Virus record (IMG/VR): IMGVR_UViG_3300010998_000026
Location: 1 to 64,000 of that record
Strand: one strand, 5' to 3'
Length of the DNA stretch: 64,000 bases
Origin: a virus
Taxonomy: Duplodnaviria; Caudoviricetes
A program made the translations under genes and the position numbers. Each line of letters opens with the position of its first letter. Position 1 is the first letter of the stretch. Of the stretch, positions 8,973 through 61,378 are shown in pieces. The notes below the pieces were generated by a model. The model saw only the letters and a list, made by a program, of their open reading frames with translations. It did no database searches and was not told the origin of the DNA.

Positions 8973-11900
8973 ATGGCATATACTAAACATACTTGGAATA
9001 CTAAAGAGCCAATTACTAAAGCCAAAATGTAGAATATCGAAGATGGTATAGCTGCAATTGATGCTTATAGTGAAACAAATATTAATAAACTTTTAAGTTA
9101 TCTTGGATATTCTGATTAGGAACTCAATAATGGTAATGTACTTACTAAATTAAATACATTATTTACTATTGTAGGATATAGCTTAGCGGAAGTAAATGAG
9201 CATGGTTCTATTGCCCAACGTATTAGTAATTTAAGTATTGATTCTAACTCAGTGCAACAAAATACTGCTAATATCAGTACACTTTTATCAATTATTAATA
9301 ATGCCTGTGGTACACAAGAAATTACTCAAGCTAATTTAAAATCAGTATTAGAAACTATTCGCGCTTCTATTAGCTCTATTGATACTGCCTATAAAGCAGC
9401 AGATACTGCTTTAAGCGGGCGAATTGATACAGCACAAGGAACTGCTAATACGGCTATTGAAGCAATTAATACCGCTAAAGGCACAGCAGATAGTTTAGCT
9501 CAGAGGCTAAATAATATTGAAACCAAAAACAGTACCCAAGATACTGCTATTGGAACTATTCAAGATAGATTAAATACACCAGTATCAGGCGACGCGAAAA
9601 ATCTTGAACAACATATTTCTACTTTATACTCTGACATAGATGATGTAAAAGATGAAGTTGAAACCGCGCGCGGAGTAGATAGTTTAAATGTCGCACGGGC
9701 CAATTTAAATGCACGTTTTGTAGATGATGAAGCACGTATTGCAGCGGTTGAAGGACGCCTTACTACAACGGAGACTGCAACCACTACTACAATTCCCAAT
9801 AGAATTGCGGCCGCGGAAGGACGCATTAGTACAGTAGAAGGTAAAGTAAATGAGATTGATAGCGCACATCGTACTGTTGAAGACACACTTGATACTCGTT
9901 TTGATGATATTGAAACAGAATTAACCAGTGCGAAAGACATTTATAATTCTATTGACGCTCGTTTTGACGCGGTTGAAGCAACAGCTAACGCTGCGGCAGT
10001 AGCAACTACTGTTAATACTGCTATAAATGGATTAGACGGACGCTTAACTACAGTTGAGGGTGATTTAAATACTGCATCTACTGGCTTAAAGGCGAGAGTT
10101 ACTACTATTGAAAGTGATTTAAACACTGCTTCAACGGGATTAAAAGCGCGTGTAACAGCGTTAGAAAATAATCCACAATCTACTACTACTACAATTATAG
10201 ATGTTGTTACTTATAATAATGATGGTATTCCTACTAGTATTTTAAATCCATCTGCTGATGTTGATTATTTATTAAAGAAAGATAATAAGTATTACTATTG
10301 GCGTTATATTAATAATACTTGGCAATTAATCAGCGGTGGAGAAAGTGAAGGCGGAACTTCTTCTGCTGAATTTTATGCTACTTTAACTGATATACCAACA
10401 CCATATTCAGATACAGTAGACTATTTTATTGGAAGTAATTTAAATTATATACATTATCGCTATTTAAATAATACATGGGTACAAATTCTACCCGCTGGAT
10501 TAATTAATAGTGTTACTCTTGATAATAGTTTAGTTAGTAATGAAGAAGGTGCACCAAGAAAGAGTAAACCAGTTATAAAGGAAGTTGGTAGTAATACTAA
10601 TTTATTAGCTAACTTTACTGCAATTCAATCTATTGGATATACTCAAAATGAAAATGGAACAACATTAACATGGGTTGATATAGACGGTGGAACTGATGAA
10701 GTAACTATTACAGGTGGCGGCGGTGGAAGTAGCTCTGGTATTACTGCTTTTATTAATCGTGTTACTGATGCAAATCTTACTACTATTTCTGGAGAAGATT
10801 GCATAATTAATTATATATATACTGCTACTGAACGCGTAGGCTAGTAGGATGAATTAATTGCAACTACTGGTACCGGTACATGGTCTATTAATGGGGCACG
10901 AGTAGCTACTTAGGATGTATCAATTAATGATATTTCTGATAATACTGACTATAATACTTTTAATATTGGTCCATATTTACATACTGGTACAAATAATATT
11001 ACATTAACCGTTACTATTTCTGTAAATGATCAAGTTATTAGTCGTACAAAAACTTGGGTAGCAAATGTTATTAATTTTTCTTTAACATGGGAATATGAAG
11101 AAAGTACAATTAATAGTAGTGACGAGATTAATTTTTCTTGTACTCCTTATGGCTCTGATATTACTAAAACTTTATACTTAAAAGTTGGTAATCACTAGCA
11201 ATCTCAAATTGTTACTACTAGTAGCATCCCTGTTACAGTAACATTAACAGAAAGTTTCGCGCACGGTAGTTATACTGCTGAAATGTGGATGACCGCGACA
11301 ATTAATGGCACTCAAAAAGAAACTCCACATATTTTACATGACTTTATAGTAGTCGATAGTGGAAATTCTACCCCTATTATTGCGGCAACCTTACCACAAA
11401 CAACAATAAATCAATATGATACGATTTCTATTCCATTTGTAATTTATACTCCTACTTCTTCACTTTCTACTGTAACTTTAGAAGTAAATGGTGTTGTATA
11501 GGATACTCGTACAGATATTAATAGAACTACTCAAATATGGAATTATACACCTTCTACATTAGGTACTGATATTATATATGATGAAAATGATAATCCCGTT
11601 AGTGGTACTCATACACTAGTGATTAGAAGTGGAAGTTCATCAAAAACATTAATTTTAACTACTAATAGTGTACAAATAAATAATACAGAAATTGGCGGAT
11701 ATTCTTTTAAATTAAAAGCAAATGAATTACCAAGTAATAGCGCTTTATAGAGTTGGTATTATGGTAATCCTAATACTACTAAACTTCAATTTTCTAATAA
11801 TTTTGACTGGATAAATGGCGGTATTAAAACTGAATATGATGAAAATAAATAGTTACGGCAGTATATTTGTATAAAATCTGGCACAAGAATGACTATACCA

Positions 11901-52178: not shown

Positions 52179-52290
52179 AAGGCACATACAGCAAAATCAA
52201 AGATAATCTTTGAATCGCGAGTTCAAATCTCGTCTCGCCCCATTGGGCAAGTAGCATAGTATGGTAATGCAAAAGAATTTTATGTGCCTT
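52179..52290 (+). ncRNA. CAGCAA-scaffold RNA 1 with circularly permuted tRNA body
   Basis: Outer stem AAGGCACATA/TATGTGCCTT; T arm, then acceptor 3' strand, then acceptor 5' strand, then D arm. Confidence 0.75.
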
Positions 52291-52346
52291 GACTTTTTTT
52301 AAAATTATGCTGTAAGTATCGTAAAGAGAAAATATTTTCTCTTTAT

Positions 52347-52422
52347 CGCAGATAGGGCAAACGGTTAAGCCGCGGCGCTCATAACGCTTGAGGAAATGGT
52401 CCAACTCCATTATCTGCGACCA
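52347..52422 (+). tRNA. tRNA-Met/Ile2(CAT)
   Basis: Loop CTCATAA; acceptor CGCAGAT/ATCTGCG; ACCA. Confidence 0.85.
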
Positions 52423-58096: not shown

Positions 58097-58166
58097 TGCT
58101 CTCTTCTCTTTCTACCCTCGTAAGAGATCACTTTTATATCTAAACCTATTGGGTTAAGTAGGCAAT

Positions 58167-58240
58167 GCGGCATTAGTGTAGTGGTAACACCTTTGCCCTC
58201 CAAGCAAATTTCGCCCGTTCAAATCGGGTATGCCGCTCCA
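58167..58240 (+). tRNA. tRNA-Gly(TCC)
   Basis: TTTGC-CCTCCAA-GCAAA; TCCA. Confidence 0.9.
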
Positions 58241-58245
58241 AGCCG

Positions 58246-58321
58246 AGATACGTCAGCAATTTTTCTTCTCAAGCGGTATTTTGAAGCACCGGGTCGGCTC
58301 CGGGAAGATAAGCGTATCTAG
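58246..58321 (+). ncRNA. CAGCAA-scaffold RNA 3
   Basis: Outer stem AGATACG/CGTATCT-AG; shares the GGGT.GGCTCCGG segment with RNA 2. Confidence 0.7.
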
Positions 58322-58400
58322 TTTTAATAGACTTGCCCACGCCTCTTAACAATGCGTACCAGGGGAGCACGTGGCTACGACGGTTAATAGTAGCATTCAT

Positions 58401-58534
58401 GCTGGTGTGGTGGAATGGCAGACACCTCAGACACTCGGTGTCCAGTGACTTTCGCTGGGGCAGCACCAGTGCCGAGTACCATTAAAATCTGATGCTCTTT
58501 GAGCGTGCCGGTTCGAGTCCGGCCACCAGCACCA
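58401..58534 (+). tRNA. tRNA-Leu(TAA) interrupted by a 49-nt insert (58433-58481) in the anticodon loop
   Basis: TCAGA-C[insert]TTAAAA-TCTGA; otherwise canonical type II Leu tRNA with ACCA. Confidence 0.85.
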
Positions 58535-58541
58535 TTTTTGA

Positions 58542-58964
58542 AAATAGGTACTTTCGTAACGAATCAAGGATATGGTAAGAGTGCTGTTTGATGAGCTGTA
58601 CCAAAAGACTTGGGCGTCAAAAGGCAGAAGTTAAATGGTATTGAAAACCAGCCTATTGTTGGCTTGGGTAAGAGGACCCTGTAAGTAGTTGATAGTGGAA
58701 CAATAACCTATGTAAAATAATTAGTGCTACGAAGCCAATCAGCTAAGTCCTTGTGGAGATGTACGCTGAAACAAGAGCAATCAAAAATTCCGAGGAAAAA
58801 TCCTAAGACAGTGTTGAGATTGCTCACGCGGGAAAAGCAGCAGTAGTAAATGGAGTTAGATGAACAGCTAATTATTGTGTAAATAGGTGCAGAATGATGA
58901 ATCTGAGGTAAGGTGAAATCCCTATGCCCGCAATGTTAAATGGAATTTGACGAACAGCCTATTT
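58542..58964 (+). ncRNA. ~420-nt structured ncRNA of unknown family
   Basis: Ends pair (AAATAGGT..TTCGTAA / TTGACGAA..GCCTATTT); no ORF; between two tRNA genes. Confidence 0.5.
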
Positions 58965-58970
58965 ACGTAT

Positions 58971-59050
58971 GGCCCGCTGGCGAAATTGGTTTACGCAGCG
59001 CACTCAAAATGCGTGCCTTCGGGTTCTCAGTTCAAATCTGAGGCGGGCTA
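58971..59050 (+). tRNA. tRNA-Leu(CAA)
   Basis: GCGCA-CTCAAAA-TGCGT; variable arm with TTCG loop. Confidence 0.9.
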
Positions 59051-59054
59051 CTAT

Positions 59055-59127
59055 GTCCAATTGGCGCAACGGCAGACGCGCATGGCTAAGGACCATGTTT
59101 TTGAAGGTTCAAATCCTTTATTGGACA
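59055..59127 (+). tRNA. tRNA-Leu(AAG), A34 anticodon, short variable loop
   Basis: CATGG-CTAAGGA-CCATG; acceptor GTCCAAT/ATTGGAC-A. Confidence 0.8.
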
Positions 59128-59131
59128 TTAT

Positions 59132-59160
59132 TTGACTTTTCTCAAAATCTATGATATAAT
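59132..59160 (+). promoter_or_regulatory. sigmaA-type promoter
   Basis: TTGACT-17-TATAAT. Confidence 0.8.
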
Positions 59161-59191
59161 AAATATATAAAAGGAAGAAAGAGGTAAAAGT

Positions 59192-59506
59192 ATGTCCTGC
59201 GTCTGTGAAAAAAATACTCCTCGTAATGGCCCATATTATCCATTAGGTATTAAAAAACGTATTAAATATGATAAAATTGTAAATTATCATTATGAAGGTC
59301 ATGATGGGCATGGTGGCTATACTTGTGATTATATTCCAGTTGAAACAGAAGCAGAAGTTTATCTAAGAGTAGATTATCCAATACTATATGAAACAAATGG
59401 TGGCGGATATAATAAAAGATTATTTCATTGTCCACTATGTGGACGTTATTTTCCGCCAGTAAGTCAATGGGAAAAAGAACAGGAAAAATATGAATTAAAT
59501 ACTTGA
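59192..59506 (+). CDS. Zinc-ribbon hypothetical protein
   Basis: CVC...HCPLCGR; RBS GAGG. Confidence 0.75.
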   Translation: MSCVCEKNTPRNGPYYPLGIKKRIKYDKIVNYHYEGHDGHGGYTCDYIPVETEAEVYLRVDYPILYETNGGGYNKRLFHCPLCGRYFPPVSQWEKEQEKYELNT

Positions 59507-59556: not shown

Positions 59557-60144
59557 AACTCTCTGTTTAGCAATTACGAACCAAGTGAAGATGTGTTAGC
59601 CACACAGCTTGGGCTACCTGGATAACATCGCAGACCTTGATGGGATACTTTCAAGTATGCGACGCGAAACTAGTAATAGTTAGCGATAAGGGAGAAACTC
59701 CAAATGTTAAGGGTAGGCGCCGATTACTTCGCTTGTAAATGCACGATTCCTCACGGCGGCACAATAGAAAGCTAGGTTAAGAGCCAGGCCGAATCCAGAT
59801 AAGGTGTTGGGGTGGTAGCCAATACAACCTCTGGAAATAACCACAAGTCGCTACTGTCGGTGAAAGTCAGAAATGGCATATAAGTGAGGTTTACGGTTGG
59901 AGTAGCTCAAGACAGCAAATGAATATGTTATTAAAAAGAAGCGTTTTAATTCTTTTCATATTGCTGAATGGCTTGGGTGAAACTTGAAGGTAGACAATCC
60001 TTCCTATTCTCGGCGCGAAAGCGCGGCTATTAGATGGTATGAGGTCGCTACTCATGCTACAGCCTAATGGTCAATAGTAGCATAATATACAAGAAGAAGA
60101 TAATTGGTATGGCGAAGGTCACGCTAATTGTTAAACAGAGAGTT
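59557..60144 (+). ncRNA. ~590-nt large ornate ncRNA, probably ROOL
   Basis: 20-bp terminal stem AACTCTCTGTTTAGCAATTA/TAATTGTTAAACAGAGAGTT; internal GAGTAGC/GCTACTC pair; size and phage tRNA-array context match ROOL. Confidence 0.65.
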
Positions 60145-61283: not shown

Positions 61284-61378
61284 AGCCCCTTAGCTCAATT
61301 GGTAGAGCACCGGTCTCTAAAACCGTGATATGCCTCTGAAGCAGGTTGTTCTGGGTTCGACTCCCAGAGGGGTTGCCA
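61284..61378 (+). tRNA. Amber suppressor tRNA (anticodon CTA) with a 19-nt extra arm
   Basis: CCGGT-CTCTAAA-ACCG; acceptor AGCCCCT/AGGGGTT-GCCA; T arm CTGGG-TTCGACT-CCCAG. Confidence 0.9.

Follow-up and report, generated by a model that had tools for sequence, protein, structure and literature searches.

We have found a transfer RNA (tRNA) gene that carries, within its anticodon loop, what appears to be a second and much smaller tRNA. The gene lies in a stretch of 64,000 nucleotides (hereafter the window) of the viral record IMGVR_UViG_3300010998_000026, i.e., the first 64 kb of a 76-kb record of an uncultured virus that is estimated to be 43% complete. By direct reading, positions 58401–58534 of the + strand are a class II tRNA-Leu(UAA) gene interrupted in the anticodon loop, where an insert of 49 nt (58433–58481) splits the tRNA between C32 and U33. 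Judged from its own sequence and from those of its relatives, the insert would be a miniature tRNA with an acceptor stem, a stub of a D arm, a T arm and an ACCA tail. Our preferred reading, to which we give a probability of about one half, is that this is a tRNA-shaped intron that would be removed at structure-defined ends, by RNase P and a 3′-endonuclease, the tRNA being resealed by an RNA ligase. That the insert is an intron excised precisely by some route is a safer proposition, which we consider quite probable.

The interrupted gene and the fold of its insert

The host tRNA has an acceptor stem and a D stem of 3 bp; its variable arm is long, its T arm is canonical, and the gene encodes the A-CCA end. 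Its 5′ exon (58401–58432, + strand like all the features given here for the gene and the insert) consists of the acceptor strand (58401–58407), the D arm (58410–58425) and the first strand of the anticodon stem (58427–58431), and its last base is C32 (58432). The 3′ exon (58482–58534) begins with UUAAAA, in which U33 (58482) is followed by the anticodon UAA (58483–58485) and then by A37-A38, and continues with the anticodon-stem strand complementary to 58427–58431 (58488–58492), the long variable arm (58493–58506), the T arm (58507–58523), the acceptor strand (58524–58530) and A73 plus CCA (58531–58534). As it stands, the gene is called neither by ARAGORN nor by the Rfam tRNA model (RF00005), and it is not among the 21 tRNAs that ARAGORN finds in the tRNA array of the window (51.4–63.7 kb). 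When the insert was deleted in silico, ARAGORN called an 85-nt tRNA-Leu(taa). Both exons can also be delimited by comparison with natural uninterrupted genes, since four phage tRNA-Leu(UAA) genes were found that have the same 17-nt stretch of the 5′ exon and no interruption (loci L151, L153, L154 and L155; the L numbers denote fetched loci). In the alignment of the window with L151, L153 and L154 the gap was exactly 58433–58481, so that the insert boundaries receive independent support. A preliminary description of this DNA, made from the sequence alone, had claimed a 49-nt interruption of tRNA-Leu(UAA) at C32/U33; direct reading, ARAGORN after removal and the uninterrupted homologues all agree with it, and the interrupted gene itself is confirmed. 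In an unbiased scan for CCA-ended inserts over the array of the window, the Leu(UAA) gene alone passed.

The insert opens with the 5′ strand of an acceptor-like end stem of 7 bp (58433–58439), which pairs with the 3′ strand at 58471–58477 and includes one G-U pair, and it finishes with a single-stranded ACCA tail (58478–58481), i.e., a discriminator-like A plus CCA, so that the 3′ boundary falls after 58481. Stem and tail are both present as had been described. The single enclosed hairpin of the preliminary description has to be replaced, since covariation points to two conserved inner hairpins. One of them is a stub hairpin (58440–58449) with a 3-bp stem and the tetraloop CAGU, and the other is a T-arm-like hairpin (58454–58470) with a 5-bp stem and the 7-nt loop GGCAGCA, which abuts the 3′ strand of the end stem. 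Between them, at the place of the variable loop, there is an A/U-rich linker of 4 nt (58450–58453), which in the family is 4–7 nt long, variable in sequence and unpaired. The minimum-energy fold of the single sequence contains another inner hairpin of 7 bp (z-scores −1.4 to −2.0) and was rejected, as the homologues show the two hairpins instead.

To test the three-helix structure, we aligned 17 distinct inserts with MAFFT alone (A1); 91.9% of the cells were paired and 14 of the 15 pairs had changed on both sides. The covariation score was 0.843, versus 0.250 for shuffled alignments, and none of 500 shuffles reached the observed value; when the structure was slid by 1–3 columns as a control, only 30–41% of the cells were paired. 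In the same alignment the CAG of the stub-hairpin loop was invariant across the family, and so were positions 3, 4, 6 and 7 of the T-like loop and the ACCA tail, present in 17/17 rows including seven that had been found without requiring it. A covariance model built from A1 (R1, from 17 sequences with that of the window among them) scores 58433–58481 over its full length at 67 bits (E ~1e-17), a match that holds by construction, the independent support being the covariation among the other members. The next match in the 64-kb window reaches 12 bits, and the only weak secondary matches there are ordinary tRNAs. Over 812 kb of fetched DNA, R1 gave 51 matches (alignment A2), namely 50 inserts and the T-arm half of one full-size tRNA (L037). 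The 50 copies, of which 28 are distinct, come from uncultured phage and metagenome contigs. The 29 distinct rows of A2 have 96.2% of their cells paired and 14 of 15 pairs covarying, although this alignment was fitted to R1 and is biased towards its structure. By element, all seven pairs of the end stem had changed on both sides (94.8% of cells paired), the three pairs of the stub hairpin all covary (100% of cells paired) and four of the five pairs of the T-arm-like hairpin covary, its closing G-C being invariant in 29/29 rows. The conservation of stem and CCA in homologous inserts, on which the preliminary description had made its reading depend, is thus borne out by a covarying 7-bp stem and an invariant ACCA.

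The 7-bp end stem and the 5-bp stem have no bases between their 3′ strands. Because of this 7 + 5 bp acceptor/T-arm stack, the variable-loop-like linker and the discriminator plus CCA, the insert can be read as a tRNA minus its anticodon arm; that arm is absent, and the insert by itself is not called as a tRNA by ARAGORN or by RF00005. The reading of the small hairpin as the remnant of a D arm comes from locus L037, where two full-size tRNAs (10713–10786 and 11298–11373, minus strand) combine the T-loop GGCAGCA with a D-loop CAGY (CAGC/CAGT). From their anticodon loops these would be of Asp and Glu type, and both are missed by ARAGORN, which finds 20 ordinary tRNAs in that locus. Judging from general tRNA structure, C3 and A4 of the insert loop would stand at C56/R57 and would form the outer face of the tRNA elbow with a G of the D-loop.

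A family of inserts with a constant loop sum

Relatives of the insert were collected by patterns that differ in what they demand. One that described only the exon parts of the loop, with a free gap of 30–60 nt, gave 24 loci in the viral collection, three of which are tRNA-Leu(UAA) genes; these (L004 and L023, which are identical, and L010) have homologous inserts with other stem sequences and the same loops and tail. A pattern based on the insert gave 26 loci, 18 of them in an anticodon loop, one that is itself a full-size tRNA and seven without tRNA context (L029, L031, L034, L039, L043, L046 and L047), the last being dropped before the counts. A second exon-only pattern, blind to the insert (D arm to T loop, 72–100 nt apart), gave 53 loci, among which 17 were carriers of the insert and six of these were new; the new ones include the loop variants CAGA, AGCAGCA and GTCATCA, and all end in ACCA. 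In the metagenome scan 25 of 35 loci were carriers; L112, L137, L124, L125, L136, L141, L142 and L144 were dropped before the counts for lack of tRNA context, together with L122 and L127, which were missed by the regular expression and unmatched by R1 at E ≤0.001. The inserts of the family are 47–52 nt long, and the carriers are large, often stop-codon-recoded, phages of gut and rumen. Among 185,579 prokaryote species, each represented by a single genome, the strict insert pattern found two loci, outside tRNAs and judged to be chance; as it demands exact motifs, this is no proof of absence from bacteria. A blastn search of the insert with short flanks against 50,697 GenBank phage records gave just a chance match (E = 6), and the region 58100–59200 had a tRNA-Gly as its sole match among GenBank phages.

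A further regularity concerns the place of the insert in the loop. There are 37 distinct rows of insert plus flanks within tRNAs, with the interruption at 32/33 (18 rows), 34/35 (11) or 35/36 (8), and in all of them the anticodon loop that remains once the insert is taken out, counted on the printed flanks, amounts to 7 nt, a sum that presumes the excision of a unit that opens with the first end-stem base and closes with the last A of ACCA. The restored loop is CUUAAAA, or CUCUAAA in the case of L032. After removal, ARAGORN called a tRNA-Leu(taa) in 35 of 38 rows, the exceptions being L032 (an odd suppressor-like tRNA), L080 (truncated by the contig end) and L141 (a chance match). A slide of 1 nt separates near-identical inserts in the same tRNA (L114 versus L115, L119 and L062), an A being moved from one flank to the other with the sum kept. 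From carrier to carrier the anticodon stem varies by compensated changes, indicating that the interrupted genes are under tRNA-type selection. These patterns support the view that the own shape of the insert would set its excision boundaries. The claimed arrangement of a tRNA within a tRNA therefore stands, with ends fixed by the structure of the insert at three loop positions and a 7-nt loop restored in 37/37 rows.

Some of the host genes are unusual in themselves. In L032 (4558–4606) the same mini-insert is found at 35/36, the restored loop has the anticodon CUA, the T-loop of the host is GGCAGTA, and the gene is not called by ARAGORN even after removal. L033, L118 and L129 combine a class I tRNA body, with a short variable loop, with the anticodon UAA and a mini-insert; their ARAGORN label of Leu derives from the anticodon only.

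These data bear on two explanations in which the halves of the tRNA are not efficiently joined. According to the first, the gene is dead, i.e., a tRNA-Leu pseudogene with a DNA-level insertion and no removal at the RNA level. Such a pseudogene would fit with the failure of the gene finders and with the existence of uninterrupted alleles, but compensated changes preserve the fold of the 28 distinct inserts as well as the stems of the exons, and the 7-nt sum is exact across divergent phages. Moreover, the insert is single-copy in the five records that were searched whole and hence is not a spreading repeat, and we regard this explanation as extremely improbable. According to the second, the gene exists to produce the mini-tRNA, which might be a CCA-ended decoy or regulator, and the tRNA-Leu is a mere carrier with halves that are unjoined or joined inefficiently. 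The loops and the ACCA are indeed conserved beyond the apparent needs of excision, and the array of the window holds another tRNA-like RNA, the YrlA-like match at 52179–52293. The ACCA is also retained in 10 rows where the host tRNA gene encodes no CCA, which argues that it serves the insert itself, perhaps as a contact for RNase P, rather than general 3′-end formation. A mere carrier would not account for the 7-nt loop with U33 and UAA that is restored in all 37 rows at three positions, nor for the compensated changes of the stems; besides, the interrupted gene is the only tRNA-Leu(UAA) of an array serving a genome where TTA makes up half or more of the Leu codons. We think it unlikely that the mini-tRNA is all that the gene is for.

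A wider class of inserts was recovered by a generic scan of all the fetched loci, which asked for a perfect 7-bp end stem, NCCA, a perfect 5-bp anticodon stem around the insert, the 7-nt sum and an ARAGORN call once the insert is deleted. It recovered the mini-tRNA family plus other CCA-ended inserts in the same phages, of 64 nt in a tRNA-Ile(UAU) and 51 nt in a CUA suppressor (both in L027), 105 nt in a tRNA-Lys (L044) and 50 nt in a tRNA-Asn (L134). In L033 (13658–13733) the 76-nt insert in the anticodon loop of a tRNA-Gln(UUG) is a complete tRNA-Lys(UUU), for which ARAGORN calls the same ends, and this phage also carries a mini-insert in its UAA tRNA. The nested tRNA-Lys needs to be released by tRNA end maturation, since this is required for it to work. 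The mini-inserts look like remnants that keep solely the features needed for release by the end-maturation enzymes; the nested tRNA of L033, together with stubs of 47–52 nt, suggests an origin by the landing of one tRNA gene inside another, followed by decay to the minimum for excision. A different kind of insert was seen in a phage tRNA-Leu of L075 (match 10531–10624, minus strand), the anticodon loop of which is interrupted by ~41 unrelated nt that lack a CCA tail; where this insert begins and ends is ambiguous, and the anticodon may be UAA or CAA.

Proposed excision and resealing, and the use of UUA codons

In the route that we prefer, the insert would act as an intervening sequence at the RNA level, cut before the first base of the end stem and after the ACCA. 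The tRNA end-maturation enzymes would measure from the elbow along the 12-bp acceptor/T-arm stack, RNase P cutting at 58432/58433 and a 3′-end endonuclease after 58481, and the result would be a 3′-OH/5′-phosphate nick in an otherwise base-paired tRNA, to be sealed by a phage-encoded ATP-dependent RNA ligase. RNase P on the 5′ exon and an RNase Z-type cut on the 3′ exon would leave precisely 3′-OH and 5′-phosphate ends, and ligases of the type found in the carriers join 3′-OH to 5′-phosphate. Splicing itself is what we infer, together with the nucleases acting in it, the chemical nature of the ends and a possible regulatory use.

The RNA ligase that the preliminary description had anticipated is common among the carriers. 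Ligases of family PF09414, confirmed by Pfam on the open reading frames (ORFs), were found in 8 of 10 carrier records and in all seven that are at least 90% complete, the two records without one being 41% and 43% complete; RtcB was found in none of the five carrier records tested. By Pfam they are of two kinds, one with an OB domain N-terminal to the ligase domain and the other Rnl2-like; the former matches 337 of the 50,697 GenBank phage records. Among the ligase genes of the carriers are the ORF at L107:1435–2613 and an Rnl1-like ORF at L093:1351–2499. The co-occurrence of ligase and insert is no more than suggestive. The splicing endonuclease PF01974, the RNase Z-like PF12706 and the CCA-adding enzyme PF01743 were each found in 0/10 carrier records; as the carriers encode none of the searched families, the nucleases would be supplied by the host or be of an unrecognised kind.

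A true intron with the same structure-defined ends might instead be removed by other enzymes, i.e., by a dedicated endonuclease reading the CAGU and GGCAGCA loops, which might leave a 2′,3′-cyclic phosphate and a 5′-OH to be healed and sealed as in T4-type repair. The two loops are nearly invariant, more so than generic tRNA-end enzymes would need, and a healing step would be in line with the metallophosphoesterase genes that adjoin the ligase in two carriers and with a weak Thg1-like match that adjoins an Rnl1-like gene. No candidate nuclease was identified, the archaeal-type splicing endonuclease being among the families absent from the carriers, and the exact tRNA-end geometry and the nested tRNA of L033 are explained more simply by the tRNA-end machinery. 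This alternative thus appears doubtful to us, although one more observation speaks for it, which it shares with the objections considered next: the GGCAGCA subfamily is confined to A-rich loops.

Several facts weigh against excision by RNase P and a 3′-endonuclease with resealing by a ligase. GGCAGCA inserts were found in CUUAAAA loops and in one CUCUAAA loop only, a restriction that a purely structure-driven route leaves unexplained, and their T-like loop is non-canonical as a T-loop, so that its recognition by RNase P or RNase Z is presumptive. Many RNase Z enzymes of bacteria are hindered by CCA, which acts as an anti-determinant, and to our knowledge a cut exactly after CCA is documented just for a few, e.g., RNase Z of Thermotoga and RNase BN of Escherichia coli. 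With regard to the ligases, Rnl2- and Rnl5-type enzymes prefer nicks in duplexes, and the type known to seal anticodon loops is Rnl1, an Rnl1-like gene (PF09511) being found in only 2 of 10 carriers. No ligase gene was found in the record of the window itself, which is 43% complete. The carriers are possibly related, so that their co-occurrences with ligases are not independent, and the control (large non-carrier records, with a PF09414 ligase in 1/4 and in 0/2 of the complete ones) is small and unmatched. Finally, RNA data were available as contigs of four gut metatranscriptome runs from two studies, each of which shares 5–7% of sampled words, and most of these contigs fall on the ROOL RNA described below and on 58547–58981; the sole RNA contig across the gene is unspliced (X4 record 24, 58330–58533, depth 2.4, ending near the 3′ end of the gene) and no joint of 58432 to 58482 was present, although contigs cannot show absence. 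The unspliced contig could be DNA, and we take the contig data as neither supporting nor refuting splicing.

The insert might also be a small ribozyme that cleaves or splices itself, whether HDV-like, hammerhead-like or of a new type. In favour of this are its compact three-way junction, in which unpaired bases are invariant, and the HDV-like theta ribozymes described next to tRNAs in recoded phages of the gut (Kienbeck et al., 2024; PMC10879173). However, no Rfam ribozyme family matches the insert even at E ≤10, the invariant loops are distant from both junctions, at the opposite end of the fold, conservation is lacking in the bases of the 5′ junction, and inspection revealed no partner for an HDV-type P2; a ribozyme is accordingly very unlikely. 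An HDV-like or theta fold was considered specifically and rejected: the order of strands resembles P1-P3-P1′, but there is no P2 partner after the ACCA and no match to an Rfam ribozyme. The best Rfam matches on the insert were microRNA models, on the wrong strand and with E >1.

The gene can be placed in the context of codon use. The genome, of 34.5% G+C, uses TAG as a sense codon: when it is so translated, the summed length of the ORFs of at least 120 amino acids rises from 30.2 to 61.8 kb and the longest ORF from 531 to 2783 amino acids, and genes such as those of tail-fibre-like proteins and glycosyltransferases have 3–29 in-frame TAGs each. A CUA tRNA of 95 nt (61284–61378), labelled “Pyl” by ARAGORN, is presumably the amber suppressor serving this recoding. 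The same test for TAG or TGA recoding was too noisy on the carrier loci, which are mostly tRNA arrays, and was left unused. In code-11 ORFs, TTA accounts for 34 per 1000 codons and 50% of the Leu codons, in agreement with the high UUA frequency that had been claimed; the values are 44.2 per 1000 (64%) in the 26 ORFs that contain TAG and 28.5 per 1000 (39%) in the 14 that are free of it. The array has a tRNA-Leu(CAA) and a tRNA-Leu(AAG), and the interrupted gene is its only Leu(UAA). As this gene is single and TTA is heaviest in the TAG-containing ORFs, the need for a phage ligase could delay the TTA-rich recoded genes. That the decoding of UUA depends on a ligase made by the phage, which would time the recoded late genes, is an idea and not a result. 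The shielding of the anticodon loop from nucleases, suggested in the preliminary description, is likewise conjectural.

Other RNAs of the array deserve mention. A full-length ROOL RNA (Rfam RF03087, 317.7 bits) lies within it at 59557–60141 and is the most heavily covered stretch in the four metatranscriptome runs; in one contig 60123 is followed, after 11 other letters, by 59567, as would fit copies in tandem or in a circle, or else an artefact of assembly. Between the interrupted tRNA-Leu(UAA) and the tRNA-Leu(CAA) there is an ORF-free stretch of ~430 nt (58542–58981) with no Rfam match, covered by an RNA contig of 438 nt (X2 record 10, depth 57). This downstream non-coding RNA (58535–58975) was considered as a conserved partner, but its similarity is only patchy and modular and appears in a few other carrier loci. 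The YrlA-like (Y RNA-like) match mentioned above (52179–52293) reaches 37.2 of 69 bits and is below the gathering score, and next to it (52347–52419) there is a tRNA found by Rfam (43.5 bits) and not by ARAGORN.

Relation to known tRNA introns and tRNA-like elements

The tRNA introns of bacteria and phages are taught as group I ribozymes, and protein-dependent tRNA splicing is held to be archaeal and eukaryal. A conserved insert that is neither group I nor bulge-helix-bulge, and the removal of which restores a perfect loop, implies another way of splicing tRNAs in bacteria. In its full form, which we put forward only tentatively, this would be a third route in which a mini-tRNA intron is excised by the end-maturation enzymes of the cell and the tRNA is resealed by a phage ligase; the decoding of UUA (of UAG in L032) would depend on the ligase and act as a timer of late genes, and the released mini-tRNA may have a job of its own. 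As the same insert sits in the amber-suppressor-like tRNA of L032, the matter bears on the timing of the switch of genetic code in stop-codon-recoded phages. In addition, since standard tRNA finders miss interrupted genes, inventories of phage tRNAs and analyses of codon supply are incomplete.

The group I intron of tRNA-Leu(UAA) in cyanobacteria, plastids and some bacteria splices itself as a ribozyme with a conserved core and is ~200 nt long or longer. It shares with the mini-tRNA inserts the host tRNA and the loop, and the 34/35 position of some inserts is what we take to be the classic group I site. In contrast, the inserts measure 47–52 nt and have no core and no Rfam match; that of the window, with 49 nt, lacks the catalytic core P3–P9 and matches nothing in Rfam at E ≤1 or, for this class, at ≤10, so that a group I intron was rejected. 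The bulge-helix-bulge introns of archaea and eukaryotes are also short inserts near the anticodon loop, at varied positions, which protein enzymes and a ligase remove. The junctions of the mini-inserts, however, do not have two 3-nt bulges around a 4-bp helix, and neither the splicing endonuclease (0/10) nor RtcB (0/5) was detected among the genes of the carriers themselves. In the window the 5′ site abuts the covarying end stem and the UUAAAA after the 3′ site has no complementary 4-mer in the required place, for which reason this class was also discarded. The misfit to both classes that the preliminary description had asserted holds on account of size, the lack of Rfam matches and junctions unable to form the motif.

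As to tRNA-like processing signals, the mascRNA of MALAT1, the t-elements of plant mitochondria and the tRNA punctuation of mitochondrial transcripts are tRNA-shaped modules that direct cuts by RNase P and RNase Z. Like in these cases, a tRNA-shaped module would mark the cut ends within a longer transcript. Such modules separate adjacent RNAs, and we know of none placed inside another tRNA with flanks to be rejoined. In phage T4, the cut made by PrrC in an anticodon loop is healed by Pnkp and sealed by Rnl1. This repair resembles our proposal in that a break in the anticodon loop is closed by an RNA ligase of the phage, and differs in that it deals with host damage and not with an encoded insert; it also uses Rnl1, of which a similar gene is present in 2/10 carriers only. 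The theta ribozymes of recoded gut phages are 3′ of tRNAs and self-cleaving (Kienbeck et al., 2024; PMC10879173). In common with the mini-inserts they are small structured RNAs on tRNA-Leu, tRNA-Met or suppressor tRNA genes of gut phages, with a proposed control of maturation and recoding, but their fold is another one, and the part of that text consulted contains neither the word “intron” nor “anticodon loop”.

The closest precedent is that of the Lak megaphages, the tRNAs of which contain “enigmatic” introns, stated to be the first in phage tRNAs; the intron of a tRNA-Thr(UGU) “itself may encode a tRNA”, and intron ends were placed by means of intron-less alleles, with no family or mechanism given in the part of the article consulted (Devoto et al., 2019; PMC6784885). 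A follow-up to that work merely repeats that Lak tRNAs contain introns. Both are found in tRNA genes of large TAG-recoded gut phages, one Lak intron is possibly tRNA-like, and intron-less alleles exist. We compared four tRNA regions of one Lak genome, the sequences of Fig. 4 and Supplementary Table 6 of Devoto et al. lying outside this comparison. R1 gave no match on Lak-A1 (MK250016.1) at E ≤1. The one credible insert that could be delimited there measures 93 nt and interrupts a tRNA-Tyr(GUA)-like gene on the minus strand of region L147 (484000–502500), at ~2386–2481 of the reverse complement; in it a T-arm-bearing tRNA-like part comes after ~27 other bases, its ends are unpaired and there is no CCA. 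Thus, in these four regions the Lak introns have no homology of sequence or structure to the mini-tRNA inserts. The novelty of the element has to be stated with this precedent in mind. Phage tRNA introns, one of them possibly tRNA-like, were already in Devoto et al. (2019), and what stands is the CCA-ended mini-tRNA intron, of which no description was found in the literature, the possibly relevant sequences of the Lak supplement being outside the comparison. A covariation model, a rule that fixes the ends and a connection with a ligase are all absent from the consulted part of the Lak article. The mini-tRNA insert is therefore a distinct and much better defined variant of the published but unexplained phage tRNA introns.

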